Below are positions 34,217 to 56,708 of a stretch of DNA of 64,000 nt, in pieces (positions within the stretch are counted from its first letter, which is position 1; each line of letters begins with the position of its first letter). Source of the DNA: an uncultured Solirubrobacterales bacterium (GTDB lineage: Bacteria > Actinomycetota > Thermoleophilia > Solirubrobacterales > 70-9). The notes under the pieces were generated by a model. It had not been told where the DNA came from. It saw only the letters and a list, made by a program, of their open reading frames with translations, and did no database searches. Where the stretch lies: the NCBI GenBank assembly GCA_963798875.1, contig CAWCUT010000002.1, positions 1-64,000 of the forward strand. The letters are read 5' to 3'. Position numbers and translations under genes: made by a program.

Positions 34217-34237
34217 ATAGCTTGAAAGGCAACCCAG

Positions 34238-36714: not shown

Positions 36715-36748
36715 TGCGAAAGCCAACCAACGAGCCAAGGAGTCACCG

Positions 36749-38131: not shown

Positions 38132-38196
38132 TCGCCGGCGAGGCGTCACGTTCCATGTCGTCACGACATGCTTCGTAACCAGCCGGCGGGGCGCCG

Positions 38197-38970
38197 ATGA
38201 GCGGCCTCGAGGCGGCACCGCTCGGCCTCGCGATCGGCCTCTTGATGGGCGCCTTCGGCGGTGGCGGCTCGCTGCTCGCCGTGCCGCTGCTCGTCTACGT
38301 CGTCGGCCAGGACGTGCGCGAGGCGCAGGCGACCTCCCTCGTGATCGTGATCGCCGGGGCGCTGGCGGCGCTCGCCGCCTACCTGCGCACCGACGACGTG
38401 CGCCTCCGCGCCGGCATTGCCTTCGGCCTGGCCGCCGGCGTCAGCGCGCTCGCCGGCTCCGTTGTCAACCGGCACCTGAACCCCGACCTGCTGCTGCTCA
38501 TCTTCAGCCCGCTGATGGTCGCCGGGGCGGCGGCCCTCGTCAGCGACGCCGCGCGCCGGCCGGCCCAGTTCCGGCCGTGGCGCTTCGGCATCTCACGCTC
38601 AAGCGTCGTGCGCGTCATCGTCTACGGCCTCGCGGTCGGTTGGATCACGGGCTTGTTCGGCGTCGGCGGGGGCTTCGTGATCGTCCCGGTGCTTGTCCTG
38701 GGCCTGCGCTTCTCGACGATCGAGGCGGTGGCGACGAGCCTGCTGATCGTGATCATCGGCTCCGGCTTCGCGCTCGTCGACCGGATCGCCTCCGGCGACG
38801 TCGACTGGAGCATCGCGATCCCGCTCTCGATCGCCGCGGCCCTCGGCGCGCTCGCCGGCCATCAGGTCGCCGAGCGCTACGACGGCGAGCGGCTGCGCCA
38901 GGCACTCGCCGTGGTCATCGTTGGGGCCGCCGTCTACACGGCGATCCGCTCGGCCGCGGCGCTGATCTGA
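38197..38970 (+). CDS. TauE/SafE-family sulfite/organosulfur exporter.
   Basis: Eight-TM duplicated 4-TM architecture, 257 aa. Glycine-rich helices typical of DUF81/TauE. Confidence 0.7.
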   Translation: MSGLEAAPLGLAIGLLMGAFGGGGSLLAVPLLVYVVGQDVREAQATSLVIVIAGALAALAAYLRTDDVRLRAGIAFGLAAGVSALAGSVVNRHLNPDLLLLIFSPLMVAGAAALVSDAARRPAQFRPWRFGISRSSVVRVIVYGLAVGWITGLFGVGGGFVIVPVLVLGLRFSTIEAVATSLLIVIIGSGFALVDRIASGDVDWSIAIPLSIAAALGALAGHQVAERYDGERLRQALAVVIVGAAVYTAIRSAAALI

Positions 38971-40566: not shown

Positions 40567-40665
40567 CCTATGCGAGCGCGCCAGGCGGCACCATCACCCT
40601 GATCGGGCGATCTTCCCGGACGGCCCAGATCCCGACCCCGCACGCCGTTCCGGTAGGTTTTTCCC

Positions 40666-41979: not shown

Positions 41980-42060
41980 CGATCCAGCCGCCCGCTGCAG
42001 GGCCGGCTGCGGAGGAAGGACCACGGCAGGGTCCGGCGGGCCTCCGGCGAAGACCTCGCC

Positions 42061-42528
42061 GTGCCCTCCAAGCCGGACAGCTCGATGGCTCAGCGCTACA
42101 TGGAACGGCGCGTCGAGGAAAAGGGGCTGCTGCCGCGGATCGCGGCCTCGCTGATCGCGACTGCGTGGGTCGCGGCGATCGTCGTCTTCGGGATCGTCGA
42201 GCATCTGATCGACCCCGACACCTTCGGTTCGGTCTGGTACGGGATGTGGTGGGCGACGCAGACCGTGACCACCGTCGGCTACGGCGACGTCGTCCCGCAA
42301 AATGGCGCCGGGCAACTCGTCGCGACGGTCCTGATGGTCGGGGGCCTCTCCTTCTTCGCCGTGCTCACGGGCTGGATCACGACCGCCTTCGTCACCCGAG
42401 CGCAGTCGCTGCGCGACCGTGGGCCTGAGCTGGCGGTCGAGGAGAAGCTGGACCGGCTCACCGCCGAGATCACGGCGCTGCAGGAGCAGGTCGCGCGGCT
42501 CGGGCCGCCGGCCAAGGGCGGCGTCTAG
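42061..42528 (+). CDS. Two-TM potassium channel (KcsA-like).
   Basis: Selectivity filter TTVGYGDV between two TM helices. C-terminal coiled coil. Confidence 0.75.
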   Translation: MPSKPDSSMAQRYMERRVEEKGLLPRIAASLIATAWVAAIVVFGIVEHLIDPDTFGSVWYGMWWATQTVTTVGYGDVVPQNGAGQLVATVLMVGGLSFFAVLTGWITTAFVTRAQSLRDRGPELAVEEKLDRLTAEITALQEQVARLGPPAKGGV

Positions 42529-42548
42529 ATCTAGATGGTTGATCCCAC

Positions 42549-43934
42549 CTAGGTCGGCGCAGGCGGCGGATCCGCCCCGGAGCCCGCGCGCGCTGCGGCG
42601 GGCTCGTCGTCCTCGTCCGACGGCTGCGGCAGCTCGATCACGACCAGGTAGGCGACGACGACGCCGACGATGATCAGCGGGCTCGTGCCGAGCCCCGAGC
42701 CGGCGGTGAGCACGAGCGCCAGGACCGTGGCCGAGAGCGGCAGCCGCAGGACCGCGACGACCGCGGCGCCGATGCCGACCGCGATCGCCGGCGTCAGCTC
42801 GAAGCCCGGCAACCGCGACGCCATGATCCCGCCGGCGGTGCCGAGGAAGATCGCCGGGAAGACCGGGCCGCCGCGGAAGCTGCCGAGCGAGATCCCGTAG
42901 GCGATCCCCTTGAGCGCGATCAGAACGGCAAGGGCCCCCGTCGACCAGGCGGCGGCGTCGTGGACCAGCGGCGCGACCTGCACCTCGCCCGAGAAGAAGA
43001 CCTCGTCGGCGCCCTTGTCGGTGATCTGCGCGAACACGATCGCGAGCACCGAAACCGTCGCCCCGATCAGTGGCAGCACGACGAAAGGACGGCGCAGGGC
43101 AGCGGGCTCGACCCGGCGGCCGATGATGAAGATGAGGTGCACGGCCACGGCGATCACGACCGCAAGCGGGATCGTCCACAGGAAGTCGACCGCATCCGGG
43201 CGCGCGAAGGCGGGCAGGCTGATCGGCCCGAGCGCGATGGCCGAGGTGTCGAGGCCGGTCCACGAGCCCATGCCGGTGGCCAGCAGCGAGCCGATCCCGG
43301 AGGCGAGCAGACCGGGGATCAGGATGAGCGGCAGCCGCTGCTTGTCGAGCCCGGCCGCCTCGACCAGCAGTACTGCCGCGATCACGGGCGAGCCGAACAG
43401 GAACGAGATCGCGGCGAAGACGCCCGCAAAGGCGATGATCAGCTGCGCCTCCGGCGGCGAATCGGAGGCCGCCTGGCGGATCAGCAGGAAGCCGAGCCCG
43501 CCGCCGACGGCGATCAGCGGCGCCTCGGGACCGAGCACGATGCCGAGGCCAATGCCGGCGAGCGCGGCGAGCAGGACTCCGGGCAGGTCGATCGGCTCGG
43601 TCGGCGTCGCGTTGAGCCCGCGGACTGGAATGTGCCCGCCCTTCCCTGGCATGCGCGCAACGGCGAAGGCGACGAGCACGCCGGCGATGACGAGGAACGG
43701 CAGCGACCACCAGTCCGGGGTGCTGTCGAAGCCGAAGGTGTCGGGCAGGTCGTCGTAGACGCCGACCTGGATCTGGTGGATCGCCTCGAGAAAGCACCAG
43801 GCGACGAGCGAGGAGACGATGCCGACGATCGCCGCCAGCACGAGCAGCTTGAGGAACGAACGCTGCCGCATCACGGCCATCGGGTCGGGCCCTCCCGCCG
43901 GCGGCTGGGGCTGGGCGGCCTGCGCCTCCATCAT
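42549..43934 (-). CDS. ClC-family voltage-gated chloride channel/transporter.
   Basis: 461 aa polytopic protein with ClC-like GKGGHIP and GPEAPL segments. Confidence 0.7.
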   Translation of the reverse strand: MMEAQAAQPQPPAGGPDPMAVMRQRSFLKLLVLAAIVGIVSSLVAWCFLEAIHQIQVGVYDDLPDTFGFDSTPDWWSLPFLVIAGVLVAFAVARMPGKGGHIPVRGLNATPTEPIDLPGVLLAALAGIGLGIVLGPEAPLIAVGGGLGFLLIRQAASDSPPEAQLIIAFAGVFAAISFLFGSPVIAAVLLVEAAGLDKQRLPLILIPGLLASGIGSLLATGMGSWTGLDTSAIALGPISLPAFARPDAVDFLWTIPLAVVIAVAVHLIFIIGRRVEPAALRRPFVVLPLIGATVSVLAIVFAQITDKGADEVFFSGEVQVAPLVHDAAAWSTGALAVLIALKGIAYGISLGSFRGGPVFPAIFLGTAGGIMASRLPGFELTPAIAVGIGAAVVAVLRLPLSATVLALVLTAGSGLGTSPLIIVGVVVAYLVVIELPQPSDEDDEPAAARAGSGADPPPAPT

Positions 43935-43969
43935 CGGGCCGAGCCTATGGGAAACGCCCCTGCACGGAT

Positions 43970-43986
43970 CACCCGGTCAGGGTGAT
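43970..43986. promoter_or_regulatory. Palindromic motif TCACCCGGTCAGGGTGA (site 1 of the recurring family).
   Basis: Perfect 6-5-6 inverted repeat about 85 nt upstream of the 44071 gene. The identical 17-mer occurs at 46596-46612. Confidence 0.45.
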
Positions 43987-44070
43987 GCTCGCGGCCCTGC
44001 GCCTGCGCTGGAGTTCAATATGGTGCCGACCGCGCGCCGGCGCGGTTCACACCAACAGGAGGATCAGGCG

Positions 44071-44490
44071 ATGCCGACCCAGGCCTACCAACCGAACAAC
44101 TTCCGTTTCGTCGAGCGCCCGCAGCTCGGGACCATCGGCGAGCGCCTCACCGTCGCCGGCTGGCTCGGGCTGATCGGCCTCCTCAACCTCTTCTACGCGA
44201 TCGCGGTGATCGCCGGCTCGGACATCTTCATCACCACCGCTTCCTGGCTCGTCGGCGACGCGCGGCCCTGGGGCTGGCTGATGCTGGTCGTCGCCCTGAT
44301 CCAGCTCGCCGCCGTCCCGGCGGCGGCGCTCGGCATGAAGCCTGGCCTGTGGATCGCCGTCATCTCGGCGATCGCCCACATCGCGGCAGCGATCATGTTC
44401 ATGACCGACGAGTTCGTGCTCGGGCTGCTCCTCATACTCGTCGACATCGCCATCCTGCTCGCCGCGGCGATCGCGATCGAAGACGCCTGA
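44071..44490 (+). CDS. Small DUF-type membrane protein (paralog A).
   Basis: RBS AGGAGG then ATG. 139 aa with 3-4 TM helices. Paralogous to 46130-46546 (shared …G.D.F.T…W.G…G…IQL…A… pattern). Confidence 0.6.
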   Translation: MPTQAYQPNNFRFVERPQLGTIGERLTVAGWLGLIGLLNLFYAIAVIAGSDIFITTASWLVGDARPWGWLMLVVALIQLAAVPAAALGMKPGLWIAVISAIAHIAAAIMFMTDEFVLGLLLILVDIAILLAAAIAIEDA

Positions 44491-44870
44491 GCGGCGTCTG
44501 GCCAGGCTGGTCCGGGCTGGGTCGGCGGGGGGTGGCGGCAGCTCCAGCCCCTTACGCCGCGCGGACCGGCGTTGCCGGCGAAGGGCGTGGCAGCGCGAGG
44601 GCACTGAGGGAGGTCGGTTGAGAAGGGGGGTGGGCTTGGGCGTTCCTTGTCGACTTTTCCATCTATATGACGGGAAAGTCGACGAGGTTCGGTGCCGCGG
44701 GCCCAGCGGGCCCAGCGGGCCCAGAGATGGACTTCGCCTGCGCCCCTCGGTGCCCAAAGGCGGTCAACCTTCCGCCGGCGTCGGGGTTGGGCCCGCGGCG
44801 ACCGCCGGAACGCAAACGGCCGGCGACCCGAGGGCCGCCGGCCGCTGCTCGAACCTCTCGAGACGGCGCC

Positions 44871-45167
44871 TCAGCCGAGGATCTTGGCCTTCTGGGCCGC
44901 GAACTCTTCCTCGGTGAGGACGCCGCTGTCGCGGAGCTCGCCGAGCTGCTTGAGCTGCGCGATCGGATCTGCCGCGGGCGCCGCCGGGGCGGCGGGCTGC
45001 GCCTGCTCAGCCATCTGCTGCTCGGTCCCCATGTCGACGCCGGTGTAGGGGTCGCGGCCCTGGTCGGCCCAGCGCTGGTGCTGGCGCTTTTGGACGCGAC
45101 CGCTGACGGCGGTCGCCGTGCCGGCGACGACGGCGGTGCGGGCTACTCCTCGAATCAGTCCTGGCAT
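44871..45167 (-). CDS. SHOCT-domain protein.
   Basis: C-terminal LKQLGELRDSGVLTEEEFAAQKAKILG (SHOCT). ATG preceded by AAGGAG. The longer track ORF is an over-extension. Confidence 0.6.
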   Translation of the reverse strand: MPGLIRGVARTAVVAGTATAVSGRVQKRQHQRWADQGRDPYTGVDMGTEQQMAEQAQPAAPAAPAADPIAQLKQLGELRDSGVLTEEEFAAQKAKILG

Positions 45168-45213
45168 TGTCTCGCTCCTTGTTCGCTGAGTGGTCGAAGT
45201 GTGACGGGGCCGG

Positions 45214-45768
45214 TCAGCCCTCGAGCTCGTCGAGCGCTGCGAGCAGCGCCTGCACCGGGATCCTGCCGCTGGCGACGAGCTGGCCACCGGAGCGACGCAC
45301 GGCGGACGCGAAGGGCGCCGCCCACGAGTTCTCGTAGACGAGCAGCGCCGCCGCGGTCCCGGGCTCGAGCGCCTCGGCCGCCTCGGCAAGGTCCTCGTCG
45401 CCGATCAGCCCCGAGGAGGCGCCGGCGAAGACCTGCAGATGCTCCGCCGGACCACCGAGGTCCTCGAGGTCAAGCGCTGCGATCGTGCCGTCCTCGCCCT
45501 TGACGAAGACCGCGAGGTCGAGGACGCGGATGATGCCCCGCTCGACCAGGTCGAGGAGCAGCGGCATGGCCTCTCCGTTGGGCTGCCGGTCGGGCCACTC
45601 GACCAGGATGTAATCGATCGGGCCGACCTCGTCCAGTTCTTCGCTCGCCACCTCTACCACCTCTCGGTTCAACTCAGGTTTCCGGTTATGGGCGCAGGCT
45701 ATCTCGGTCGCATGGCTGGGCATCACCCGGATCGAGTGACGTCCGCCAGGCTCGCCGACGGCTCGCAC
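45214..45768 (-). CDS. Hypothetical protein (DUF, often paired with SHOCT in actinobacteria).
   Basis: …GPIDYILVEWPDRQPNGEAMPLLLDLVERGIIRVLDLAVFVKGEDGTIAALDLED… No catalytic motifs recognised. Confidence 0.4.
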   Translation of the reverse strand: MRAVGEPGGRHSIRVMPSHATEIACAHNRKPELNREVVEVASEELDEVGPIDYILVEWPDRQPNGEAMPLLLDLVERGIIRVLDLAVFVKGEDGTIAALDLEDLGGPAEHLQVFAGASSGLIGDEDLAEAAEALEPGTAAALLVYENSWAAPFASAVRRSGGQLVASGRIPVQALLAALDELEG

Positions 45769-45800
45769 TCGGCGGCGGCGGGCCCGACGCGGCTTCGGGG

Positions 45801-46073
45801 ATGGTCGTCATCCAGCTGCTCTCGAACGGACCCCTACAGCAGGTCGTGCAAGCGATCGCCTACGGGGCGGCGCTCGGCCTCAATCCGCTCGCCGTACTGA
45901 TCCTGACGATCGGCGCCGGCGCCCTGTTCGGCGCCGTCGGCCTGGTGCTCGCCGCGCCCGTGACCTCGGCGATCATCCGCATCTCCGCCGACCTCGCAAA
46001 GGCGCGGGAGGCGGAGCGGCGCCCTCAGCCCAGGGCGCGCCGGCCCCGTAACCCGGCGGCGCCTGACCGGTGA
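45801..46073 (+). pseudogene. C-terminal remnant of an AI-2E (PerM) family transporter.
   Basis: …LGLNPLAVLILTIGAGALFGAVGLVLAAPVTSAIIRISADL… matches only the last about 80 aa of AI-2E transporters. No upstream body. Confidence 0.35.
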
Positions 46074-46129
46074 ACGACGAGCGGGGCCCGCAGGCCCCGC
46101 TCGAGGTGTGCTTTGTTCGGTCGGTGGCG

Positions 46130-46546
46130 CTAGACCCTCGGCCCGGGCGCGGGCTCGTCCGGGTCCCACTCGATGACACCCCAGACGACCCAGATGCAGA
46201 GGAGGAACACGCCGAACGACCACCACGGGTAGTGGCCGCCCATTCCAACCAGCGCCTCGATCGCGCCGATGCTGCCGGCGGCGATCGCGATCACGCGGCC
46301 GTAGATGTGGCCGGCGATCAGCGAGGCACCGCCCGTGAGCTGGATGATGCCGAGGACGATCAGCACCCAACCGTACGTATGCAGGTTGGTGAAGACGAAG
46401 CGCGTATCGCCGACGAAGACGTTCGCGTCACCGAGCGCGCCGATCCCGTAGATGATGTTGATGAAGCCGATGATCAGCAGCAAAGTCGCCGCGAACACCG
46501 CGCGTCCTGAACCCTTCATGTTCGTTCTCCTTTCGCGAGGAGGCAA
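46130..46546 (-). CDS. Small DUF-type membrane protein (paralog B).
   Basis: 138 aa with 3-4 TM helices. Homologous to 44071-44490. Preceded, in gene orientation, by the same 17-bp palindrome (46596-46612). Confidence 0.6.
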   Translation of the reverse strand: MPPRERRTNMKGSGRAVFAATLLLIIGFINIIYGIGALGDANVFVGDTRFVFTNLHTYGWVLIVLGIIQLTGGASLIAGHIYGRVIAIAAGSIGAIEALVGMGGHYPWWSFGVFLLCIWVVWGVIEWDPDEPAPGPRV

Positions 46547-46595
46547 TCCCCTCGTGGTTGCGGAACGAAGGTAGGCCGCCTGTTGCCGGCCACCG

Positions 46596-46612
46596 TCACC
46601 CGGTCAGGGTGA
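46596..46612. promoter_or_regulatory. Palindromic motif TCACCCGGTCAGGGTGA (site 2).
   Basis: Identical 17-mer to site 1. About 50 nt upstream of the paralog B start. Lies between the gad stop and the paralog. Confidence 0.45.
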
Positions 46613-46628
46613 TCTTCGCCGCACCCGC

Positions 46629-48032
46629 TCAATAGCCTGTCGCCGACTTGACCTTCGCACGCTCGCTCTCGTGGGCGCCGCCCTTGCTCTCGAGCGTCTC
46701 GCAGGCCGCCCCGATGTCGTCGGCGAGCGTCGAGACGAGCGTGTGGCTGAAGTTGAGCTTGACCAGCGCCCGCAGCATCTTCACGTGGTCGGCCTTCGGC
46801 GGCATCGTGTAGGCGGGCAGCATCCAGTTGCGCTCCGCCGCGACCTGCCAGGCGATGTCGAACTCATCGAAGCGGTCCTCGTCGGCAAGGTTGAACGCAA
46901 CGAGCGGCAGTTGCTCCTCTCCGTCGCCGATCAGTTGGAAGCGGCCCATGTCGCGCAGGCGCGAGGCGAGCAGCTGCGCGTTCTCGTGCATCACGCTCAT
47001 CACGTAGCGATAGCCCTCGAAACCGAAGCGGCAGAAGTTGTAGTACTGCGCCAGAACCATCGCCGAGCCCGTCGAGAAGTTGAGCGTGAACGTCGCGTCC
47101 GTCTTGCCGAGGTAGTTCTCGTAGAAGACGAGGTCCTCGGCCAGATCGGCCTTCTCGCGGAAGATGAGCCAGCCGATGCCCGGGTAGACCATCCCGAACT
47201 TGTGCCCGGAGACGTTGATCGAGCGCACCTGCTCGAGCCGGAAGTCCCACTCGCGATCGGGGTAGAGGAAGGGCCAGACGAAGCCGCCGCTGGCCGCATC
47301 GACGTGCAGCGGCACGTCGATGCCCTTCTCCTGCTTGAGCCGGACGAGCAGCGAGTTGATCCCCTCGATGTCGTCGGCGTGACCGGTGAACGTCGTGCCG
47401 AGCACGGCGGCGACGCCGATCGTGTTCTCGTCGACGTGCGGCTCCACGTCCTCGGGCCCGATCGTGTACTTGTCGGGCTGCAGCGGGACGATCCGCGGCT
47501 CGACGTCGAAGTAGCGGCAGAACTTCTCCCAGACGACGTGCACGTCGCCGCCGAAGACGAGGTTGGGGCTGTCGGTCGGCCGGCCCGCGGCCTGCTGACG
47601 CTGGCGCCACTTCCACTTCAGCGACAGGGCGCCGAGCATGATCGCCTCCGAAGAACCCTGGGTGCGGGCACCGGTCGTCTCGCCTGGCGCGTTGAACAGG
47701 CTGGCGAGGATGCGGATGCAGCGCTGCTCGATCTCGGCCGTGCGCGGGTACTCGGCGTGGTCGATGAAGTTGCGGTGGAGGTTCATCGCGACCACGCGCT
47801 GCGCCTCCGGCTCCATCCACGTGGTGACGAAGGTGGCCAGGTTGCGCTCGGGAACGCCGTCGAGGACGAGCTCCTCGCCGATCAGGCGCATCGCGTCGAC
47901 CGCCGGCATACCGTGCGAGGGCAACTCACCGTCGGGCGGTCCCTCGGTCAGGAACTTGTTGCCGAACTTGCCGATGAAGCCGTCGTCATCGATCGGGTTC
48001 ACCGCACCGTGGTCGTTCGCCTTGCTGCTCAC
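46629..48032 (-). CDS. gadB: Glutamate decarboxylase (PLP-dependent).
   Basis: RBS GAGGAG plus GTG start. Strong GAD similarity throughout (…LATFVTTWMEPEA…NVSGHKFGMVYPGIGW… PLP-lysine region). The track ORF start at 48320 is over-extended. Confidence 0.8.
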   Translation of the reverse strand: MSSKANDHGAVNPIDDDGFIGKFGNKFLTEGPPDGELPSHGMPAVDAMRLIGEELVLDGVPERNLATFVTTWMEPEAQRVVAMNLHRNFIDHAEYPRTAEIEQRCIRILASLFNAPGETTGARTQGSSEAIMLGALSLKWKWRQRQQAAGRPTDSPNLVFGGDVHVVWEKFCRYFDVEPRIVPLQPDKYTIGPEDVEPHVDENTIGVAAVLGTTFTGHADDIEGINSLLVRLKQEKGIDVPLHVDAASGGFVWPFLYPDREWDFRLEQVRSINVSGHKFGMVYPGIGWLIFREKADLAEDLVFYENYLGKTDATFTLNFSTGSAMVLAQYYNFCRFGFEGYRYVMSVMHENAQLLASRLRDMGRFQLIGDGEEQLPLVAFNLADEDRFDEFDIAWQVAAERNWMLPAYTMPPKADHVKMLRALVKLNFSHTLVSTLADDIGAACETLESKGGAHESERAKVKSATGY

Positions 48033-48141
48033 GCTTCTCCTCGTTCCGTATCCCCCGCCGTGCGAGGCTCGGAGGCGAGCGTGAAGCGCCGCGCGAGCAC
48101 GCGCATCACCACGTCTGGGTGAAACGGGGACCGCGCCCCGG

Positions 48142-49566
48142 TCAGTCCGGCTCGGGCGGCGCCAGCTCCAGCCGGCCGTCCTCGATCGCCTGCGAGAACT
48201 CCGCGAAGTCGCTCTCGTTGCGGTCCGCGTAGGCGGCGGCGAAGGAGCCCATCGCCTTCGAGAACCCCTTGCCGCCCCCGAGGTAGCCTGCGATCGCGAT
48301 CGGATCGCCGCCGCGGGCATGCGCGCCGGCGAGCGTCGTGCCGCAGACGCGGCCGAACGTGGCGAGATCGCCGGGCGTCATCTCCTCGATCCGGGCCGAG
48401 GCCTTGGCATCCCAGAGTTGCCGCACGTAGAAGTGACGCTCGGGCTCGGAGCGGATCGTCGCGGACGTCCAGCCGAGGAGGATGTCGCCGGCCGCCTGCA
48501 TCAGGCGCTGACCCTCGACGACGCGGCGGCCATGGTGCGAGTAGACGGACGGACCCGTATACGGCTCGAGTACCGAGGCCTCGGCCTCCTTGATCTGCAG
48601 GAAGAGCGGGTCGCTGTCGTCACGGCCGATCAGCAGGGCGATCCACGCGCGCGTGCCGACGCTGCCGACGCCGACCACCTTGCGTCCGGCATCGACGAAG
48701 CGGTACTTACGCAGCAGGTGCTTGTTCTCGTCCGCGAGCGAATCCAGGTAGGAACCGAGCACCTGGTTGACGAGCTCGGCGACGAGGTCGGCCTCGTCCG
48801 GGGCGATCTCGCGCGTCGGGACGAGAACGGGCGGCTGCGAGCGGATCCGGAGCTTCCCGTCGACGCGCTCGGTGAGCTTCGCCAGCGCCCGCATCCGCGT
48901 CTTCGAGGCCGCCTTGGCGGCGTTGCGGTCGATCGCCTTGCGCCGGCGGGAGTCGACCGAGCGCCGGTACTCCTCGAGCGGGCCCTCCGCCTCGAAGCGG
49001 CGGTAGCGGACGTCGATGTGGCCGAGCTCGGCGAGCTCGGCCATCGTCGTCGCGTAGGTGGAGACGGCCGCGACAACGGCGTCGCGCCGCTGCGGGCGGT
49101 CGAACCCGCGATTGCGCCCGGCGATCTCGAAGCTCGCCGCGAGCCGCTTGACGTCCCATTCCCATGGGCCGGGGTGCGTCTCGTCGAAGTCGTTGCAGTC
49201 GAGCACGATGCGCCGGTCGGCGGCGGCGAAGCCGCCGAAGTTGGAGAGGTGGGCGTCGCCGCAGAGCTGCGTGCGCAGTCCCGCGTCGGGAGTGCCGCTC
49301 AGGTCGGCGGCCATGATCGCCGCCGCGCCCCGGTAGAAGGTGAACGCCGAGTCGAGCATCCGCCGGTGGCGCAGCGGCAGCAGCTCCTGCAGCCGCGCGG
49401 TCTCCTGCGCCTCGAGGATCGCTACGGGGTCGACGCCGGCGGGCCGATCGAACTCCGCGTGGCTCGAGCGCGGCGCCGTCCCTCGCGCGGCCCGGCCCAG
49501 CTCGCGGCGCTCCTCGGGGCTGAGCTCAGCCCACGGCAGCGTCAGGATCGCCGCGGCGGTTGCCAT
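48142..49566 (-). CDS. DUF2252-domain protein.
   Basis: 474 aa, intact. LRHRRMLDSAFTFYRGAAAIMAADL...QLCGDAHLSNFGGFAAADRRIVLDCNDFDETHPGPWEWDVKRLAAS matches the DUF2252 pattern. Confidence 0.65.
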   Translation of the reverse strand: MATAAAILTLPWAELSPEERRELGRAARGTAPRSSHAEFDRPAGVDPVAILEAQETARLQELLPLRHRRMLDSAFTFYRGAAAIMAADLSGTPDAGLRTQLCGDAHLSNFGGFAAADRRIVLDCNDFDETHPGPWEWDVKRLAASFEIAGRNRGFDRPQRRDAVVAAVSTYATTMAELAELGHIDVRYRRFEAEGPLEEYRRSVDSRRRKAIDRNAAKAASKTRMRALAKLTERVDGKLRIRSQPPVLVPTREIAPDEADLVAELVNQVLGSYLDSLADENKHLLRKYRFVDAGRKVVGVGSVGTRAWIALLIGRDDSDPLFLQIKEAEASVLEPYTGPSVYSHHGRRVVEGQRLMQAAGDILLGWTSATIRSEPERHFYVRQLWDAKASARIEEMTPGDLATFGRVCGTTLAGAHARGGDPIAIAGYLGGGKGFSKAMGSFAAAYADRNESDFAEFSQAIEDGRLELAPPEPD

Positions 49567-49602
49567 CCACCCGATCGTACGCCCACGCGGCGGCCTTCCA
49601 GC

Positions 49603-49619
49603 TCACCCGATCGGGGTGA
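49603..49619. promoter_or_regulatory. Palindromic motif TCACCCGATCGGGGTGA (site 3).
   Basis: In the divergent intergenic region between DUF2252 (minus) and the 49653 membrane protein (plus). About 35 nt upstream of the plus-strand ATG. Confidence 0.4.
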
Positions 49620-49652
49620 TGTTGCCGCTCCTCCCCCAGATAGCTTGCGGCG

Positions 49653-50291
49653 ATGGCCGTACATGCGGGAACCCTGAAGGCCCGACCCGGGCTGCCGCGG
49701 CTGATCGGCGGCCTCTTCGCGATCGGCTCGGTCTGCTTCTTCGTCGGTCCCTTCCCCGGCTTCGTCAACCTGGTCGGTGCCGAAGCCGACGGCATCACCT
49801 TCTTCGTCGGCTCGCTCTTCTTCACGTCGGCGGCGCTGCTACAGGCACTCGAGGCGCACGGCAAGGACAGGCTGCCGACGCTGATCCAGTTTGCCGGCAC
49901 GATCTTCTTCAACGTCAACACCTACCGGGCGCTGCAGACGACGATCGACAACTCCGACGTCAACAGGCTGATCTGGGCGCCGGAGGCGATCGGCTCCGCC
50001 TGCTTTCTGATCTCGGGCGCGATGGCGTTCGCCGACATCCGCGGTCAGGGCTTCTCGCTGCGGCACAGCGCCGAGGGCAGGATCGCCTCGATCAACCTGG
50101 CGGGCTGCGTCTTCTTCGTGATCGCCACGATCGCCTCTTACGTCGTCCCGAAGACGGGCGACGCGCTCGACCTCGCGGCCGCGAACTGGAGCACGGCGCT
50201 CGGCGCGCTCTGCTTCTTCGCGGGCGCCGTGATCCTCGCGCGCGCCTCTGCGCCTGACTCAGCGGGCGAGCGGCCGCGCGTCGCCGGCTGA
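49653..50291 (+). CDS. Hypothetical polytopic membrane protein.
   Basis: 212 aa with about 6 TM helices. No family recognised. Confidence 0.5.
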   Translation: MAVHAGTLKARPGLPRLIGGLFAIGSVCFFVGPFPGFVNLVGAEADGITFFVGSLFFTSAALLQALEAHGKDRLPTLIQFAGTIFFNVNTYRALQTTIDNSDVNRLIWAPEAIGSACFLISGAMAFADIRGQGFSLRHSAEGRIASINLAGCVFFVIATIASYVVPKTGDALDLAAANWSTALGALCFFAGAVILARASAPDSAGERPRVAG

Positions 50292-50416
50292 CGGCAGCCG
50301 CTGCGGCTTGGGTGAGGCCGGGGGCGCTACCGGTGCCGGCGTCGGGGGCGGCAGGTAGGAGCCGGTCGCGATCGCGATCGCCCGTAGCAGTGGGGTCCGG
50401 CGCACCACCAGCTTGC

Positions 50417-50770
50417 TCATGGCCCGTGATCCCCGGCGGCAGCGCCCGGCAAGCCCATGCCCAGCGCCAGCATCAGCTCGGGAGCGGCGGCGATCGCCCG
50501 CGCCTCCCCGACCAACGGCGCGACGGCGCGAAGCAGCTCCAACAACTCGGCGGGCGTAACCCCGGCGTCGATCGCGGCCGTCACCTGGCGACCGTAGGCG
50601 GCGGGCGGCGCATCGAGCGCCGTCGAAACGGCAAGACGGACGAGCGCCACGGTGCGCTCACCGAGGGCCGAGGCCGGCGGCTGCTCGCCGAGCCCTCCGG
50701 CCAACGCCTCGGGCCGGCCCGAGGCGACCTCCGCCAACGCCCTGTGAACCTCGGTCTCGCTCGCGCCCAT
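50417..50770 (-). CDS. AhpD/carboxymuconolactone-decarboxylase-like protein.
   Basis: Internal ATG (MGASETEVHRALAEV…) of track ORF 50417-50914. Helical AhpD-like fold features. The palindrome site lies about 60 nt upstream. Confidence 0.5.
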   Translation of the reverse strand: MGASETEVHRALAEVASGRPEALAGGLGEQPPASALGERTVALVRLAVSTALDAPPAAYGRQVTAAIDAGVTPAELLELLRAVAPLVGEARAIAAAPELMLALGMGLPGAAAGDHGP

Positions 50771-50829
50771 GTCTCCTCGTTGCCCTCGTCGCCGAGTCCG
50801 AAAGCTATGGGCAGCGGCCTCGGCGATCA

Positions 50830-50846
50830 TCACCCGAACGGGGTGA
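50830..50846. promoter_or_regulatory. Palindromic motif TCACCCGAACGGGGTGA (site 4).
   Basis: 6-5-6 inverted repeat upstream of the AhpD-like gene on the minus strand, just 3' of the LAL regulator stop. Confidence 0.4.
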
Positions 50847-50852
50847 GGGCGT

Positions 50853-53204
50853 TCAGCCGGGCTGACGGATCGCCGCTTTTGCCTCGCGCGACGCCCCCGA
50901 GCCGGGCAGCTCACCGCCGGCGATCAGCCCCGCGGCCTGGGCGACGTCGACCGCCTCCGCACGCGAGCTGACGCCGAGCTTGCGGTAGATCGATCGTGCC
51001 TGGGACTTGACCGTGTTGGTCGACACGAACAGCTGCGCGGCGATCTCGCGGAAGCTGTGGTGGGTCGGCAGCTGGTGCAGGAGGCGGAGCTCCGCCGGGG
51101 TCAGCGGCCAGCGCGTCTCGCCACCGGAGGCGGCGGCCTCCTCGCGTGCCCGGCCGAGCATCTCCTCGAGGACGGGCGCCCCGACCGCCCGCCGCACGTG
51201 CGGCTCGGCCTCGTCGAGCCAGCGATGGGCGCCGGCGAAGTCGTCGAGCTGCAGCAGCGCCCGGGCGAGGACGATCCGCGCCTCGGCCTCGTACCAAGAA
51301 CTCATATCGGTGATCGCTGGAATCAGCGCGGCGGCCTGCCGCGCCGACGTGACTGCATCGTTGACCCGGCCGCGGCGAGCTTTGATCAAGGCCGTCACCG
51401 CGATCGCCAGCGCCTGAGTCTCGTGCCTATCGATCCCGTAGCGCTGGACCGTCGCCGCACTGTGTTCCTCGAGCGCCCAGGCCTCGGTCTCGGCACCGGC
51501 GTCAAGCAGGAGGAGTGCGTGCTGCGCGAGGCAGAGGCTGCGGACCGTCGGCGCGGCGCGGTCGCCGAGCCGGGCGCCCTCGGCGAGCGCCTCGGCAGCA
51601 CCGTCTCCGTCGCCGCCGAGATGCCGGGCGACGCCCTCGATGAAGCAGGCGAGCGAGCGCCACGGATCGCTCTCGGGAAGGAGGGCGCGGGCTCTGGCGC
51701 CGGCATCAAGCGCATCCGGGAGTGCTACCGCGATGCCGCCGGAGGCGGCGATCAGGTCCGCCCCGAACTCGATCGAGGAGCGCTCGTCCTTGGGCACGAA
51801 CTCGAGCGCCGCCCGGGCAGCCGCCGTCAGGCGGTCGACGCCGGCGCCGTCGCCGGCGTTCAGGTCGAGCGCCGCCTGTGTCAACGCCAGCTGCGGGTTC
51901 GCCAGGATCGTCGCGTCGCTGAAGCGCGCCAGCCACGCCGCGACGCCCGCGACGCGCCCATGGCTGGCGTAGTCGGGCACGTGCTCCCACAGCAGGCGAC
52001 CGGCGGCAACCTCATCACCGCTGGTGATCGCGTGCTCGATCGCCCGATCGGCATCGCCCCGCTCGGCGTAGATGCGGCTCGCGCGCAGCTGCAGCTCCCT
52101 GAGGCGGCCGGAGCCGCGGCGCTCTAGTTCGCCGAGCAACATCTCGCGCAAGAGCGCGTGATAGCGGAAGTCGCGGTCGAAGCGGTCAAGCGGAATCACG
52201 AGCGGGTTCGACTGCGAGAGCCGGCGCAGGTCCTCGGCCGATCCCTGGCGGCCGAGCAGCGCGTCGCAGGCTTCCCCGTCGAGCTGCTCGAGCACCGAGC
52301 ATTCGATCAGGAAGGTGCGATCCTCTTCCTCGAGGACCGAGATCAACTCCTCGCGCAGGTAGTCGGCGATCACGCGGTCCTCTCCGGTAAAGCGCCGGAT
52401 CGCGTCGTCGGCATCGGGCGCATCGGCGAGTGAGAGGGCGGCCAGGTAGACCGCGACCGGCCAACCCTCCGTGTGCTCCGCGAGCTCCTTGAGTGGGCCA
52501 GGACCGAGCTCGATCCCGGCGACCTCGAGGAACGCGGCGATCTCGCCCCGCGTCATTGCCAGCGGCTTCGGCCCGATCTCGGCGAGGCGACCCTCAGCGC
52601 GCAGCCGGCCGAGCTTCAGTCCCGGATCGCCGCGGGTCGCCACCGCCAGTTGCGAGCCCTCCGGCATCGCCATTGCCAGTGCGCGGATCAGCTCGAGCGC
52701 CCCTGGATCGGAGACGAGATGGAAGTCGTCGAGGACGATGACGAAGGGGCGCTCGCGGGCGGCCACCAGCGCGGCCAGCCGCGGGGTCACCGAAGAGATG
52801 AGACCCGGGCGTGCGCCCACGAGCAGATCGAAGACGGCCGGATCAACCGGGTCGATCGAGTCGAGGACGGTGGCCAGCGTCCGGGCGAGGAAGACAGGAT
52901 CGTTGTCGCGATCGTCGATCGTCACCCAGCCGAACGGACGCGGGTCGGCGGCGTCCCATTCGGTCAGCAGTGTCGTCTTGCCGGATCCGGCCGGCGCCGC
53001 CAGCAAGAGCATTGCGCAGCGCGCGTAGACGTCGAGCTGCTCGACCAGACGCCGCCGTGTGATCAGTCCCCGTTCGGGGCTCCATGCCGGGCTTGGCAGG
53101 CGCAGCGGAACGGGTGCCGCTGCGTTCTCGCTGCTCGCTTGTACCCCGATGGTGCGTCGACCTCCAGCGATCTGCCACGTGCCCAGGCTTGGGCCGAAGG
53201 GCAC
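50853..53204 (-). CDS. LAL-family (large ATP-binding LuxR) transcriptional regulator.
   Basis: N-terminal P-loop (LAAPAGSGKTTLL). Long TPR-like helical middle. C-terminal LuxR HTH (LTPAELRLLHQLPTHHSFREIAAQLFVSTNTVKSQARSIYRKLGVSSRAEAV). The true start is probably somewhat downstream of the track start. Confidence 0.75.
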   Translation of the reverse strand: MPFGPSLGTWQIAGGRRTIGVQASSENAAAPVPLRLPSPAWSPERGLITRRRLVEQLDVYARCAMLLLAAPAGSGKTTLLTEWDAADPRPFGWVTIDDRDNDPVFLARTLATVLDSIDPVDPAVFDLLVGARPGLISSVTPRLAALVAARERPFVIVLDDFHLVSDPGALELIRALAMAMPEGSQLAVATRGDPGLKLGRLRAEGRLAEIGPKPLAMTRGEIAAFLEVAGIELGPGPLKELAEHTEGWPVAVYLAALSLADAPDADDAIRRFTGEDRVIADYLREELISVLEEEDRTFLIECSVLEQLDGEACDALLGRQGSAEDLRRLSQSNPLVIPLDRFDRDFRYHALLREMLLGELERRGSGRLRELQLRASRIYAERGDADRAIEHAITSGDEVAAGRLLWEHVPDYASHGRVAGVAAWLARFSDATILANPQLALTQAALDLNAGDGAGVDRLTAAARAALEFVPKDERSSIEFGADLIAASGGIAVALPDALDAGARARALLPESDPWRSLACFIEGVARHLGGDGDGAAEALAEGARLGDRAAPTVRSLCLAQHALLLLDAGAETEAWALEEHSAATVQRYGIDRHETQALAIAVTALIKARRGRVNDAVTSARQAAALIPAITDMSSWYEAEARIVLARALLQLDDFAGAHRWLDEAEPHVRRAVGAPVLEEMLGRAREEAAASGGETRWPLTPAELRLLHQLPTHHSFREIAAQLFVSTNTVKSQARSIYRKLGVSSRAEAVDVAQAAGLIAGGELPGSGASREAKAAIRQPG

Positions 53205-53444
53205 GTTATGGGCCGGGGCGGGGCCTCACTCAGTACTTACCCGTAGAAGGCGCGCGCCGCCTCACCCGATTGGGGCTAGAAGTGCCGCCTCTGCAGCGCA
53301 TAGCTTCTCTGCATCCTCTTCGACCTGCCGACATGGGTACTGGCGCTCACGATCGTCGCCGCAACCTTCGGGGCGACGGCGCTCGGCGCCTGGGTCGGCC
53401 GGCACTCCCGGCATCTGAGCGAGCACCTCAGCGAGCCGCTCGGC

Positions 53445-54089
53445 GTGCTGCAGGGAGCGCTGCTCGGCGTGGTCGGGCTGATCCTCGCCTTCGGCCTCTC
53501 GCTGGCACTCTCCCGCTACGAGGACAGGCGGGCGACGATCGTCGGCGAGGCGAATGCGATCGGCACGACGTACCTGCGTGCGCAGCTGCTCGAGCCCGGC
53601 ATCCGCGGCCCCTCCCTCAGGCTGCTCGACAGCTACGCGCACCAGGCGGTCGACGTCGCCGACCGGGTCCCCGGCAGCGACACCGAGAAGGCAGCAGTGG
53701 CGAACGAGGAGTCGCTGCAGGAACGCCTCTGGGCCCTGGCCCGGCGCGCCGTCGCCGAGCAGCCGGTCGCAACTGGACCGCGTCTGTACGTCGAGACGCT
53801 GAACAACATGATCGATGCTCAGGGGACGCGCCAGGCGGCGCTCGCCAACCGGGTTCCGCACCCGGTGCTGCTGCTCGAGCTGCTCGGCGGCGCCGTTGCA
53901 CTGGCGCTGCTCGCCGGCTACCTGGCAATGATCGGGCGCGGGGGCAGCGCCGTCTTCGTGATCGCCGGCCTCGTCGCCTTCCTGCTCTTCGTCATCGCTG
54001 ACCTCGACCGGCCGACGCGAGGGCTGATCAAGGTCCCCGACACCCCGCTCGAGAACCAGTACCAGTCGCAGCTGCACCCACCCGGGTAG
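53445..54089 (+). CDS. DUF4239 (bestrophin-like) membrane protein.
   Basis: GTG start. …RYEDRRATIVGEANAIGTTYLRAQLLEP… The in-frame TM region upstream (to about 53300) lacks a canonical start. A weaker palindrome variant, TCACCCGATTGGGGCT, lies at 53262-53277. Confidence 0.5.
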   Translation: MLQGALLGVVGLILAFGLSLALSRYEDRRATIVGEANAIGTTYLRAQLLEPGIRGPSLRLLDSYAHQAVDVADRVPGSDTEKAAVANEESLQERLWALARRAVAEQPVATGPRLYVETLNNMIDAQGTRQAALANRVPHPVLLLELLGGAVALALLAGYLAMIGRGGSAVFVIAGLVAFLLFVIADLDRPTRGLIKVPDTPLENQYQSQLHPPG

Positions 54090-54187
54090 CCAGGCACGCC
54101 CGAGGGCCTGCCTGGGTTCCTGTTCAGGTAGGTTGAGCGGGTGATCGACGTCACTCGCAAGTTCCCTCTGTCACTAGGTCGGACCGC

Positions 54188-56708
54188 TTGAGCAAGGCCG
54201 AGAAACCGCAGATCACGATCGTCGTCGACGGCGTCGAGATCGAGACCACGGAAGGCCGGATGCTGGTCGACGCCGCCAAGTCCGGCGACGTCGAGATCCC
54301 GGTCTTCTGTTACGAGCCGAAGCTCGGCGACCCGGTCGGCGCCTGCCGCATGTGCCTGGTCGAGATCGAGGGCATCCCAAAGCTGCAGACCGCCTGCTCG
54401 ACCCCGGTCCGGGACGGGATGGTCATCTACACGCAGACCGACCGGGTCAAGGAGGCGCAGAACGCGGTCGTCGAGTTCCTGCTCGTCAACCACCCACTCG
54501 ATTGCCCCGTCTGCGACAAGGGCGGCGAGTGCCCGCTGCAGGACATCTCGATGGGCTGGGGTCCCGGCCGCAGTCGCGTCACCGATCCGAAGCGCCACTT
54601 CCAAAAACCGATCCCGCTGAGCCCGCTGATCAAGATCGACCGCGAGCGCTGCATCCTCTGCTACCGCTGCGTGCGCTTCAGCCAGGAGGTCGCCGAGGAC
54701 GAGCACCTGCAGCTGCTCGAGCGCGGCCCGAAGACGTTCGTCGGGACCTTCAACGACCGGCCCTACTCCGCCCCCTTCCACGGCAACATCATCGAGCTCT
54801 GTCCCGTCGGCGCCCTGACCTCGCAGACGTACCGCTTCCGGGCGCGGCCGTGGGACATCGAGGACGCGGGTTCGGTCTGCACGCTCTGCCCGAGCCAGTG
54901 CAACGTCAAGTTCACCGTCCGCGACGAGCAGGTCGTCCGCGTCCTCGGCCGCGACAACCACGACGTCGACGACGGCTGGCTCTGCGACAAGGGCCGCTTC
55001 GGCTTCGAGATGTTTGCCTCCGACAATCGACCGCTGGGGCCGCAGGTGCGGACCGGCGGCGCGCTCGGTGAAGCGACCTGGGCCGAAGCACTGGAGCGAA
55101 CCGCACGCGGGCTGACCGAGGCGCACGGCAAGGTCGCCGCGATCGTCGGCGGCGGCGCCTCGAACGAGGAGGCCTACTTGATCCAGCGCATGGTTCGCGG
55201 CCCGCTCGCCTCCCACGACGTCGTCGGCGCCGAGCACGGCGCCGTCCCCGCCGCGTCGCGCGCGGCGCTCTCCGATCCGGACCTCGCCCTCTCGATGGGC
55301 GACATCGACGGCGCCGACGCGATCCTCGTGGTCGGCACGGACCCGATGCACGACATGCCGATCCTCGAGCTGCGGATCCGCAAGGCCGTGCGCCGCCACG
55401 GTTCCGACCTGCTCGTCGCGACCGAGCGCCCGACGGCGCTCGACGGTGGCGCGGCGGTGGGCTCCTCCGGATGCCTGGAGGCGGCGCGGTATGCACCCGG
55501 CGGCGCGGCGGCCTTCCTCGCCTCGCTGGCCGCCGAGCTGCAGGGCGAAGGCGATGGCGCCAACGGCTTCGCCGAGGCTCTGCGCGGAGCGGAGGACGTG
55601 GCGATCGTGTGGGGCGAGCGGATCTCGACCGGTCCCGGCGGCGAGAGCGCCGTCTCCTCGCTGCTCGAGATCGCCGACGCGCTCGGGCTCGCCGGGCAAG
55701 CCCGGCAGCGGCCTGCTCGAGGTTCCCGCTCGCCGCCAATGGCCGCGGCCTCCGCGAGGCGGGCGCCTACGAGAACGTCGGCCCGGGGCTGGTGCCGCTC
55801 GCCCGCAGCGGGCGCGACGCCGATGCGATCCGCGAGGCGCTCGAAGCCGGCGAGCTCGAGGCCCTGATCCTCTGGGATGTCGACCCGGTTCGCGACTTCG
55901 CCGACCCCGAGGGCTGGGCGCGGGCGATCGGCGCCGCCAACTTCACCCTGAGCGTCTCGATGTTCGACGGTGCCAGCGCCAAGGGCGCCGACGTGCACCT
56001 GCCGGCGGAGACACACGCCGAGAAGGAGGGCAGCGTCACCCACCCGGACGGGCGCCTGCAGCGGGTCCGGCCCTCGGTGCCGCATCCGGGGGCGGTGCGG
56101 CCCCTGTGGCAGGCGCTGACCGAGCTCAGCGCGCAACTCGGCGACGAGACCGGCGCCGGCACCGCCGGTGAGGTCTTCGAGCTGCTCGCCGCCGAAGCGC
56201 CGATCTACGCCGGGCTCACCTACGACCGGATCGGCGGCACCGGGATCCGCTGGCAGGAGGTCAACGCCGCGGCCGGCGCCCGAGCGGCTCGGCCGCCCCC
56301 GCCCCCGTGCCGCACGCCACCGAGCCGGCAGCCGGGATGCTGCGACTCGGCACCTACCACGACCTCTGGGCCGACTACGTCGCCGAGCGCAACCCGAGCC
56401 TCGAGTACCTCTCACCGCCGCAGACGCTCGAGCTCAGCGAAGGCGCCGCGCGCGGGCTCGGCGTCGGCAACGGAACCGAGGTGATCGTCACCGGCGAGAC
56501 CGGCGAGGAGCTGCGCGCCGTCGTCGCGATCCGGCCGCGGATGCCCGACGACGTCGGCTTCTTGATCGAGGGCACCGCCGAGGACGCCGCGAACCTGCTC
56601 GGCGAGGCGCGCGCGATCAGCGTCGCCGTCGCGCCTGCGGCGGAGGAGGACGAGGCACCGGCCCTCGGCGTCTCGGCCCGCGAGAAGGTCGCAGTGGTAG
56701 CCCGATGA
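54188..56708 (+). CDS. nuoG: NADH-quinone oxidoreductase subunit G with 2 apparent frameshifts.
   Basis: N-terminal 2Fe-2S/4Fe-4S Cys clusters (CYEPKLGDPVGACRMC…CPVCDKGGEC…CILCYRCVRF…CPVGAL…CTLCPSQC). Molybdopterin-like domain continues in a second frame (55471-) and a third (56307-56708). The stop overlaps the nuoH start (ATGA). Confidence 0.8.

Follow-up and report, generated by a model that had tools for sequence, protein, structure and literature searches.

In this study we analysed 64,000 nucleotides from a contig of an uncultured Solirubrobacterales bacterium (CAWCUT010000002.1, positions 1 to 64,000; hereafter the window). It contains an island of about 13 kb and about 13 genes, built around the gene for a 783-aa LAL regulator, in which a 17-bp palindrome, TCACCC-N5-GGGTGA, recurs between genes. 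Read from its sequence, the island is most likely a member of the type of palindrome regulon known for the LAL regulator MalT of Actinoplanes, here from Solirubrobacterales and with C preferred at position 4 of the half-site. It seems quite probable that the palindromes are binding sites of the island's own LAL and serve as activator sites standing in for a -35 element. The site type has been known since 2020 from Actinoplanes, and we do not regard the island as a new kind of system. A preliminary description of this DNA had treated the motif as unrecognised and novel, which no longer holds, as TCATCC-5nt-GGATGA was already published for Actinoplanes MalT (PMC7567727). Its view of the palindrome as a promoter-proximal transcription-factor site in a compact regulon around the LAL is borne out by the excess of copies, their intergenic position and their conservation. 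The link that it drew to the LAL is most likely correct, from the clade-wide linkage of motif and regulator and the genetics of Actinoplanes.

Palindrome sites and promoter geometry

The palindrome was searched for with a primary pattern, TCACCC-N5-GGGTGA, and a relaxed one, TCAYCC-N5-GGRTGA. Four exact copies are present in the window, at 43969, 46596, 49603 and 50830, against an expectation of 0.00 from 100 dinucleotide shuffles, and a mismatch scan of the window adds one-mismatch copies at 40594, 45723 and 48106. With the relaxed pattern there are seven sites of at most one mismatch, where 0.33 would be expected per 64 kb. All seven fall between 40594 and 50846 and none is found in the other 51 kb of the window, which is not the picture of a common dispersed repeat that the preliminary description had kept in mind. 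The four sites and the weaker fifth that it listed are real, its spacer sequences were quoted correctly and its coordinates are right for 46596, 49603 and 50830; the first site begins at 43969 rather than 43970, and the three one-mismatch sites had been missed. The weaker site, at 53262, has two mismatches (TCACCCGATTGGGGCTA) and a perfect half-site on the LAL side. Two-mismatch sites as a class are at chance level (six in the window and 7.6 expected, relaxed pattern), and 53262 owes its inclusion only to being conserved at the corresponding position in two other genomes; the site at 13404 upstream of an ATP-grasp gene, that at 58566 and the others of this class were not counted. The eight counted sites span 40.6-53.3 kb around the LAL gene, and all eight are intergenic in an island of which only about 10% is non-coding. 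Their spacer sequences differ, and their flanks are unrelated to one another apart from a -10 hexamer.

This hexamer, of the form TAnnnT, stands 21-23 nt from the palindrome edge in 8 of the 12 site-directions in the window. On the minus strand it reads TAGGGT at 40594 (23 nt), TAGGCT at 43969, facing a ClC-type channel gene (21 nt), TAGCCT at 45723 (21 nt), TACCTT at 46596 (22 nt), TACGAT at 49603 (23 nt) and TAGCTT at 50830 (22 nt); on the plus strand it is TAGCTT at both 49603 (21 nt) and 53262 (22 nt). In four genes, encoding a 525-aa protein, the ClC-type channel, a DUF2252 protein and a YrhK-like membrane protein, an ATG follows 6-7 nt past the hexamer and 33-36 nt from the edge (ATG 40557, 7 nt after its hexamer, at 36 nt; ATG 43934 at 34 nt; ATG 49566 at 36 nt; ATG 49653 at 33 nt). 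Given the distance of TAnnnT, transcription is predicted to start 33-36 nt from the edge and, because start codons lie at that same distance, several mRNAs, those of the four genes just named, are probably leaderless. The site at 40594 was assigned to the divergent 525-aa gene because no properly spaced -10 faces the nuoF-like gene on its other side, and it was rejected as a nuoF promoter for the same want of a hexamer at the standard distance. Of the palindromes that the preliminary description placed before the two DUF7144 paralogues, 46596 does stand before paralogue b; the spaced -10 of 43969 faces the ClC gene and not paralogue a.

The same spacing is found well beyond the window. When the window was pooled with seven more distant loci (L003-L009, see below), 22 TAnnnT matches occurred at offsets 21-23 among 78 site-directions, with 0-2 at each other offset, and in an independent metagenome set offset 22 alone accounts for 54 matches among 101 non-redundant sites, no other offset exceeding 3. 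Many more start codons 34-37 nt from a palindrome edge are present in other loci. The oriented consensus is aTCACCCg.ttcGGGTGATGc, followed by a variable stretch and then by TAGc.T. No sigma-70-type -35/-10 pair was found anywhere in the island, and the palindrome would cover roughly -35 to -51 of promoters without a -35 hexamer, its centre lying near -43. As the distance to the -10 is so tightly held, an activator that contacts the polymerase is to be expected here rather than a repressor, and the palindrome appears to replace the -35 element in a class-II-type activator geometry.

Conservation and linkage to LAL genes

The closest comparison is with two uncultured Solirubrobacterales metagenome-assembled genomes, L001 and L002, with LALs 94% and 84% identical to that of the window. 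They were retrieved with the LAL protein, and this match assigns the window to the same order. The palindrome is kept in both at 7/7 compared positions, these being the six sites with at most one mismatch other than 40594, which was left out, together with 53262; the loss of the sites from orthologous intergenic regions, which the preliminary description had thought would speak against a regulon, is thus not seen. At 45723, 49603, 50830 and 53262, alignment of the window with L001 and L002 reveals divergence in the DNA between palindrome and -10 hexamer, both of which are fixed. The equivalents of 53262 are TAGCCCCGATCGGGTGA in L001 and TAGCCCCGATTGGGTGA in L002. Even the half-site mismatches TCACTC (45723) and TCACCA (48106) are unchanged in the orthologues, without compensation in the other arm.

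A protein search gave a graded series of LAL homologues, from which seven further contigs with homologues of 36-64% identity were taken (L003-L009). They contain 32 sites with at most one mismatch to the relaxed pattern against about one expected, and 30/32 are intergenic. Most of their LAL genes adjoin genes for DUF6325, SHOCT, DUF7144, DUF2252, ClC, glutamate decarboxylase, carboxymuconolactone decarboxylase (CMD), SfLAP, YrhK and a Phage_holin_4_2/phosphodiesterase protein, in combinations that vary from contig to contig. DUF6325 and SHOCT adjoin the LAL homologues in L003-L005 and L007-L009 and not in L006, where a YrhK-like gene adjoins a palindrome.

Metagenome contigs were also scanned with an alignment of LALs, and gave 80 LAL-anchored loci totalling 642 kb. 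Where 0.1 exact and 4.7 one-mismatch sites would be expected, these loci hold 58 and 55, and 62/80 have at least one. In an unbiased count of perfect 6-N(0-10)-6 palindromes in these loci, TCACCC with a 5-nt spacer is the commonest. Only 4 of the 113 sites lie inside the LAL gene; 25 fall within 100 nt after its end, as 50830 does in the window, and 22 within 300 nt before the start of the LAL match. L004-L009 and the metagenome loci also contain TCATCC/GGATGA sites and mixed ones; among the half-sites of 101 metagenome sites TCACCC was counted 114 times and TCATCC 35 times. A switch of specificity between C and T at position 4, splitting the LAL clades, was considered and rejected, as mixed C/T sites make up 42/101; they are common within single loci, and position 4 is therefore simply tolerant.

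Two features of these relatives may be added. In L008, with a LAL 39% identical to that of the window, a NarL-type response regulator adjoins the LAL and a HisKA_3 histidine kinase lies 8 kb away (12156-12830 and 20649-22148), and all 22 kb are dotted with palindrome sites, nine or ten in number; this points to a larger island there, possibly with a further level of control. Some other relatives have two palindromes between divergent genes, 25-73 bp apart and each serving its own promoter (L004 12332/12387 and 13970/14026; L005 13067/13140; L007 6924/6949), whereas the window has one common site per divergent pair, as at 49603.

The regulator and rival explanations

The LAL of the island has the features of its family, an N-terminal P-loop NTPase with a Walker A motif (APAGSGKTT), a C-terminal LuxR-type helix-turn-helix (HTH) and a length, 783 aa, within the usual range of about 700-1000. 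Its first 400 aa match the structure of E. coli MalT (8bob, E=6.8e-36). Its C-terminal DNA-binding domain, about residues 695-783, shares 40% identity with the one in E. coli MalT, taken from the MG1655 record, and the recognition helices are alike (NTVKSQA in the window LAL, TTIKTHI in MalT). WHD_MalT is found among the precomputed annotations of LAL homologues. The regulator is a MalT-like STAND ATPase with a C-terminal LuxR-type HTH.

A mechanism can be proposed in which a signal would turn the LAL into an active, ATP-bound oligomer, two of whose C-terminal HTH domains would take the two half-sites of TCACCC-N5-GGGTGA. Bound there, with the middle of the palindrome some 43 bp before the transcription start and its promoter-side edge at 33-36 nt, the LAL would bring in RNA polymerase at promoters with a TAnnnT -10 and no -35 hexamer. 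One site could serve two divergent promoters, the LAL probably activates its own gene, and about ten promoters would be switched on in all.

Several observations weigh against this interpretation. There is no TAnnnT at 21-23 nt from 43969 towards DUF7144 paralogue a, the start codon of which is 85 nt from the palindrome edge, nor from 48106 towards the glutamate decarboxylase gene in the window; at the equivalent of 48106 in L001, by an alignment judged by eye, TACTCT stands roughly at the expected place. On the LAL side of 53262 a conserved TAAGTA occupies the 22-nt position in place of TAnnnT. The transcription starts are themselves predictions from sequence geometry. The best NCBIfam match of the LAL is MalT (NF003420) at 238.7 bits, under the equivalog cut-off of 537, and the Actinoplanes study consists of genetics and a motif, without gel-shift or footprint (PMC7567727). 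The assignment of the island to the Actinoplanes type would rest on motif, spacing and gene content and not on LAL orthology, and none of the 120 LAL homologues listed could be tied to Actinoplanes. Finally, all comparison loci were chosen by LAL anchoring and show linkage to the LAL, not LAL exclusivity.

This last point bears on the possibility that the palindrome is an operator for some other transcription factor, encoded elsewhere, and that the LAL is merely one of its targets. L008 does encode a response regulator with a GerE HTH beside its LAL and a kinase nearby, and the window has an ArsR-family regulator of its own at 34226-34579. We nevertheless consider this improbable: no regulator other than the LAL is shared by every locus with the motif, and no second one recurs in the gene tables of L003-L009. 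The half-site GGRTGA also resembles the MalT core GGA(T/G)GA, the DNA-binding domains are alike, and in Actinoplanes deletion of the LAL gene silences the motif-bearing genes (PMC7567727). It is slightly harder still to favour repression, in which the LAL or another factor would block the -35 region and the regulon would come on by release. A protein over -35 to -51 would block RNA polymerase equally well, yet a repressor does not require a fixed distance to the -10, and this distance is 21-23 nt, mostly 22, across about 140 sites; the lack of a recognisable -35 hexamer is what activator-dependent promoters would show, and the precedents in the MalT family are activators.

An action at the level of RNA, the palindrome forming a terminator, attenuator or processing site between genes, is suggested by the ability of perfect copies to form a GC-rich stem of 6-7 bp with a 5-nt loop, and by the fact that 46596, 48106 and 50830 each closely follow the stop codon of the minus-strand gene before them. 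It appears very unlikely, since no copy is followed by a T-run and none was called a terminator, folding energies are ordinary (z-scores -0.9 to -3.1), no Rfam match was obtained in 40000-54500 even at E<=1, and the mismatched arms TCACTC/GGGTGA and TCACCA/GGGTGA were kept uncompensated in the orthologues. In the divergent regions, moreover, the sites lie upstream of both predicted starts and would therefore not be transcribed. Repetition alone might recall a chance cluster or a REP- or MITE-like dispersed repeat without regulatory meaning, to which we attach almost no weight. Every copy lies between genes and is directed towards gene starts, and the spacers vary; the idea can be set aside because the 51 kb of the window outside the island hold no copy with at most one mismatch and the flanks, apart from the -10 hexamer, are unrelated. 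Binding and activation by the island's own LAL accordingly remains the interpretation that we prefer.

Island genes and known systems

Coding frames were picked by third-position GC and genes were named with Pfam and NCBIfam (Table 1). The gene calls of the preliminary description were mostly right, namely the 783-aa LAL, the two DUF7144 paralogues, glutamate decarboxylase, DUF2252, SHOCT and the CMD or AhpD-like protein; the DUF4239 gene that it reported is present and is now named Bestrophin-like.

Table 1. Palindrome sites and genes of the island and its borders, in window coordinates; targets are predicted
Feature	Position	Strand	Remarks
Palindrome TCACCCTGATCGGGCGA, 1 mismatch	40594..40610	.	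Putative promoter site of minus-strand 525-aa gene
Perfect palindrome TCACCCGGTCAGGGTGA	43969..43985	.	Between ClC gene (-) and DUF7144a (+)
Palindrome TCACCCGGATCGAGTGA, 1 mismatch	45723..45739	.	Putative promoter site of DUF6325-SHOCT operon
Perfect palindrome TCACCCGGTCAGGGTGA	46596..46612	.	Putative promoter site of DUF7144b
Palindrome TCACCACGTCTGGGTGA, 1 mismatch	48106..48122	.	Upstream of glutamate decarboxylase gene; weakest case
Perfect palindrome TCACCCGATCGGGGTGA	49603..49619	.	Two divergent promoters, both probably leaderless
Perfect palindrome TCACCCGAACGGGGTGA	50830..50846	.	7 nt after LAL stop codon; putative CMD/AhpD-like promoter site
Degenerate palindrome TCACCCGATTGGGGCTA, 2 mismatches	53262..53278	.	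Between LAL gene (-) and bestrophin-like gene (+)
525-aa protein, no known family	38980-40557	-	Predicted target of 40594
nuoF-like	40666-41979	+	
K+ channel	41980-42528	+	
ClC-type chloride channel or antiporter	42549-43934	-	Pfam Voltage_CLC; predicted target of 43969
DUF7144 membrane protein, paralogue a	44071-44490	+	Pfam DUF7144; possible target, spacing non-canonical
SHOCT-domain protein	44871-45167	-	Pfam; operon with DUF6325 (44871..45650), predicted target of 45723
DUF6325	45214-45650	-	Pfam; operon with SHOCT, predicted target of 45723
AI-2E transporter remnant, 90 aa (probable)	45801-46073	+	
DUF7144 membrane protein, paralogue b	46130-46522	-	Pfam DUF7144 E=4e-19; predicted target of 46596
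Glutamate decarboxylase	46629-48035	-	NCBIfam TIGR01788, 556.6 bits vs equivalog cut-off 380.4; predicted target of 48106
DUF2252 protein	48142-49566	-	Pfam E=1e-134; predicted target of 49603
YrhK-like membrane protein	49653-50291	+	Weak Pfam YrhK match; predicted target of 49603
Carboxymuconolactone decarboxylase (CMD, AhpD-like)	50417-50770	-	Pfam CMD; predicted target of 50830
LAL regulator, 783 aa	50853-53204	-	Pfam AAA_16, AAA_22, GerE; proposed binder of palindromes
Bestrophin-like (DUF4239) membrane protein	53313-54089	+	Pfam Bestrophin-like; start codon uncertain; predicted target of 53262
nuoG-like	54188-55867	+	
nuoH-like	56120-57715	+	

The predicted regulon of the window would comprise the genes for the 525-aa protein, ClC, DUF6325-SHOCT, DUF7144, glutamate decarboxylase, DUF2252, the YrhK-like, CMD/AhpD-like and bestrophin-like proteins and the LAL itself. 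From each palindrome promoter with canonical spacing the first downstream open reading frame was also collected, giving 70 non-redundant products that were scanned with Pfam. DUF7144, CMD and the LAL itself each account for 8/70 first genes, DUF6325 for 7/70, SHOCT for 5/70, DUF1269 for 4/70, glutamate decarboxylase, DUF308 and ClC (the last in 3 loci) for 3/70 each, and DUF2252 and DUF2254 for 2/70 each; single cases include Usp, MIP, MFS and SfLAP. With the LAL first behind a canonical promoter in 8/70, frequent autoregulation is indicated. One of the DUF308 members matches the HdeD acid-resistance family, below its cut-off. A role in acid or ion stress is plausible from gene content (glutamate decarboxylase, ClC, HdeD-like proteins), and pH or ion homeostasis finds circumstantial support in glutamate decarboxylase, ClC, the K+ channel, the bestrophin-like protein and the HdeD-like DUF308 proteins of relatives. 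A single gene in the window, that for the CMD/AhpD-like protein, fits oxidative stress.

Some of the genes deserve further comment. The 525-aa protein has no Pfam or NCBIfam match; it has a strong coding signal (GC3 0.94) and is 39% identical to one protein behind a palindrome promoter in another locus. The reading frame at 45801-46073 matches only the C-terminal end of the AI-2E family (model positions 274-324 of 327) and is probably the remnant of a decayed AI-2E transporter. In the bestrophin-like gene there is no in-frame ATG, GTG or TTG before GTG 53445, and coding from ATC 53313 is seen in synonymous third-position changes among the window, L001 and L002. At the 53262 promoter exactly 6 nt separate the -10 hexamer from this codon, ATC in the window and in L002 and ATT in L001, and the mRNA may be leaderless and begin with AUC or AUU. 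The homologue in L003 (L003 9024-9812) has a GTG start two codons further upstream.

The LAL island (about 12 kb by this measure) parts the nuoF-like gene from the nuoG-like and nuoH-like genes, and the same split is present in L003 (7906-8910 and 21337-22289), with a LAL 64% identical. There are no nuoA-E genes upstream of the nuoF-like gene, and interruption of a complete nuo operon by the island was rejected as an explanation. That region, 34226-38970 on the plus strand, encodes an ArsR-family regulator, an MMPL transporter, a metallo-beta-lactamase-rhodanese fusion and a TauE/SafE exporter; it carries no palindrome and looks like a unit for sulfur or persulfide handling. The nuoG-like open reading frame is short (559 aa) and the nuoH-like one has about 200 aa extra at its N-terminus, and these odd lengths may stem from a frameshift or from faulty assembly. 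The DUF7144a and SHOCT genes, which are convergent, are separated by 380 nt of non-coding DNA (44480-44880) with three 9-nt units in tandem (GCGGGCCCA, 44697-44724), an inverted repeat whose 19-nt arms enclose an AT-rich core (44645-44687) and a GC-rich hairpin (44817-44844).

Comparison with better-known regulators helps to place the island. Among CsoR/RicR with their C-tract/G-tract sites, DosR/DevR, BldD (TNAC-N5-GTNA), CRP/FNR, NnaR and PhoP none is known to have sites of a TCAC-N9-GTGA layout, and the island has no CsoR-, Crp- or DosR-type gene. In the acid fitness island of E. coli the LuxR-family activator GadE controls glutamate decarboxylase, and an HdeD-type membrane protein is included; ClC is part of extreme acid resistance in the same organism. 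A LuxR-family regulator with glutamate decarboxylase, and DUF308/HdeD-like regulon members in relatives, are common to both cases by analogy only, GadE being small and its AT-rich GAD box unrelated to the palindrome here. Activators of the LuxR/TraR type bind as an HTH dimer to a palindrome of about 18-20 bp centred near -42, overlapping the -35 region, in class-II-type activation, and the palindromes of the island would share this overlap and layout. Those activators are small, with an N-terminal domain that binds acyl-homoserine lactones, whereas the regulator here is a 783-aa ATP-dependent STAND protein and its palindrome is unrelated in sequence.

E. coli MalT is likewise a STAND ATPase with a C-terminal LuxR-type HTH, and its GGA(T/G)GA core resembles GGRTGA. 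It is an activator, and its promoter-side box, placed at about -35, overlaps the -35 region (summarised in PMC7567727). Its boxes are asymmetric decamers, GGGGA(T/G)GAGG, in several copies including direct repeats, in contrast to the single 17-bp inverted repeat here, and its regulon serves maltodextrin uptake and catabolism, unlike the island; no mal-type gene is present in the island or behind any palindrome promoter. Identity with E. coli MalT in the strict sense was rejected, the LAL falling below the equivalog cut-off and the island lacking both maltodextrin genes and asymmetric MalT boxes.

The closest parallel is with Actinoplanes sp. SE50/110, where the LAL regulator MalT (ACSP50_3915) activates a region of 51 genes (Droste et al. 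2020, PMC7567727). The same study reports a MEME motif, TCATCC-5nt-GGATGA, upstream of 17 transcription starts; the motif overlaps the -35 region, with 34.4 +/- 1.0 nt between its 3' end and the start. Deletion of malT lowers 42/51 genes of the region and overexpression raises 39. The authors tie the motif to GGA(T/G)GA, the core hexamer of E. coli MalT, and state that no maltose genes are controlled, and the regulon responds to growth on maltose (PMC7567727). Supplementary Tables S3 and S4 of that paper list SHOCT, three DUF1269, an AI-2E transporter, DUF308, diacylglycerol kinase and MFS, and DUF2252 is listed for A. missouriensis.

We found no literature after the 2020 paper that extends this system beyond Micromonosporaceae. 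The island would carry the only characterised example of the site type across a class boundary, and our analysis adds its breadth in soil Actinomycetota, a conserved core gene set, frequent leaderless promoters and autoregulatory sites. It offers a testable regulatory assignment for about ten genes, mostly of no known function (DUF7144, DUF6325, SHOCT, DUF2252, YrhK-like, 525-aa), in Solirubrobacterales, which are abundant in soil and barely studied. The 17-bp palindrome followed after 22 nt by TAGnnT, often with a leaderless start, might be used as a search pattern for annotating such regulons. No general principle is changed and the value is incremental. The conserved core suggests that the published 'maltose' label may reflect a growth condition rather than a function. 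More tentatively, and with the odds rather against it, one old LAL regulon may extend across classes of Actinomycetota, in Actinoplanes as in the island, and truly serve pH or ion homeostasis or resting-state survival, not sugar. Its core would then be the small membrane proteins DUF7144, DUF6325-SHOCT, DUF1269 and HdeD-like DUF308, the ion channels (ClC, K+, bestrophin-like) and a proton-consuming amino-acid pathway, glutamate decarboxylase here and arginine deiminase in Actinoplanes, and what the LAL senses would be a metabolite tied to stress, not maltotriose.

The features common to the island and Actinoplanes MalT are several. In both, the LAL gene is surrounded by membrane and transport genes, most of them uncharacterised, that are regulated together, by prediction in the case of the island, with sites on both sides of the LAL in the window and likewise in L001-L009 and 62/80 metagenome loci. 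Both have a 6-5-6 palindrome, one site per promoter, with Y/R at position 4 here, and a spacing of about 34 nt from edge to start with overlap of the -35 region, which for the island is deduced from the position of the -10. SHOCT, DUF1269, DUF308, AI-2E, DUF2252, diacylglycerol kinase and MFS are present in Actinoplanes and in the window or related loci; an intact AI-2E transporter is regulated by MalT in Actinoplanes, and the window holds a remnant. Gene order is reshuffled between relatives in both cases and the sites are kept. The island differs in that position 4 of the half-site is mostly C, in its host, which belongs to Solirubrobacterales of the class Thermoleophilia and not to Micromonosporaceae, and in its smaller size. 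Many of its promoters appear leaderless, and glutamate decarboxylase, ClC, DUF7144, DUF6325 and CMD here take the place of the arginine deiminase genes, amylase and glucosidase of Actinoplanes.

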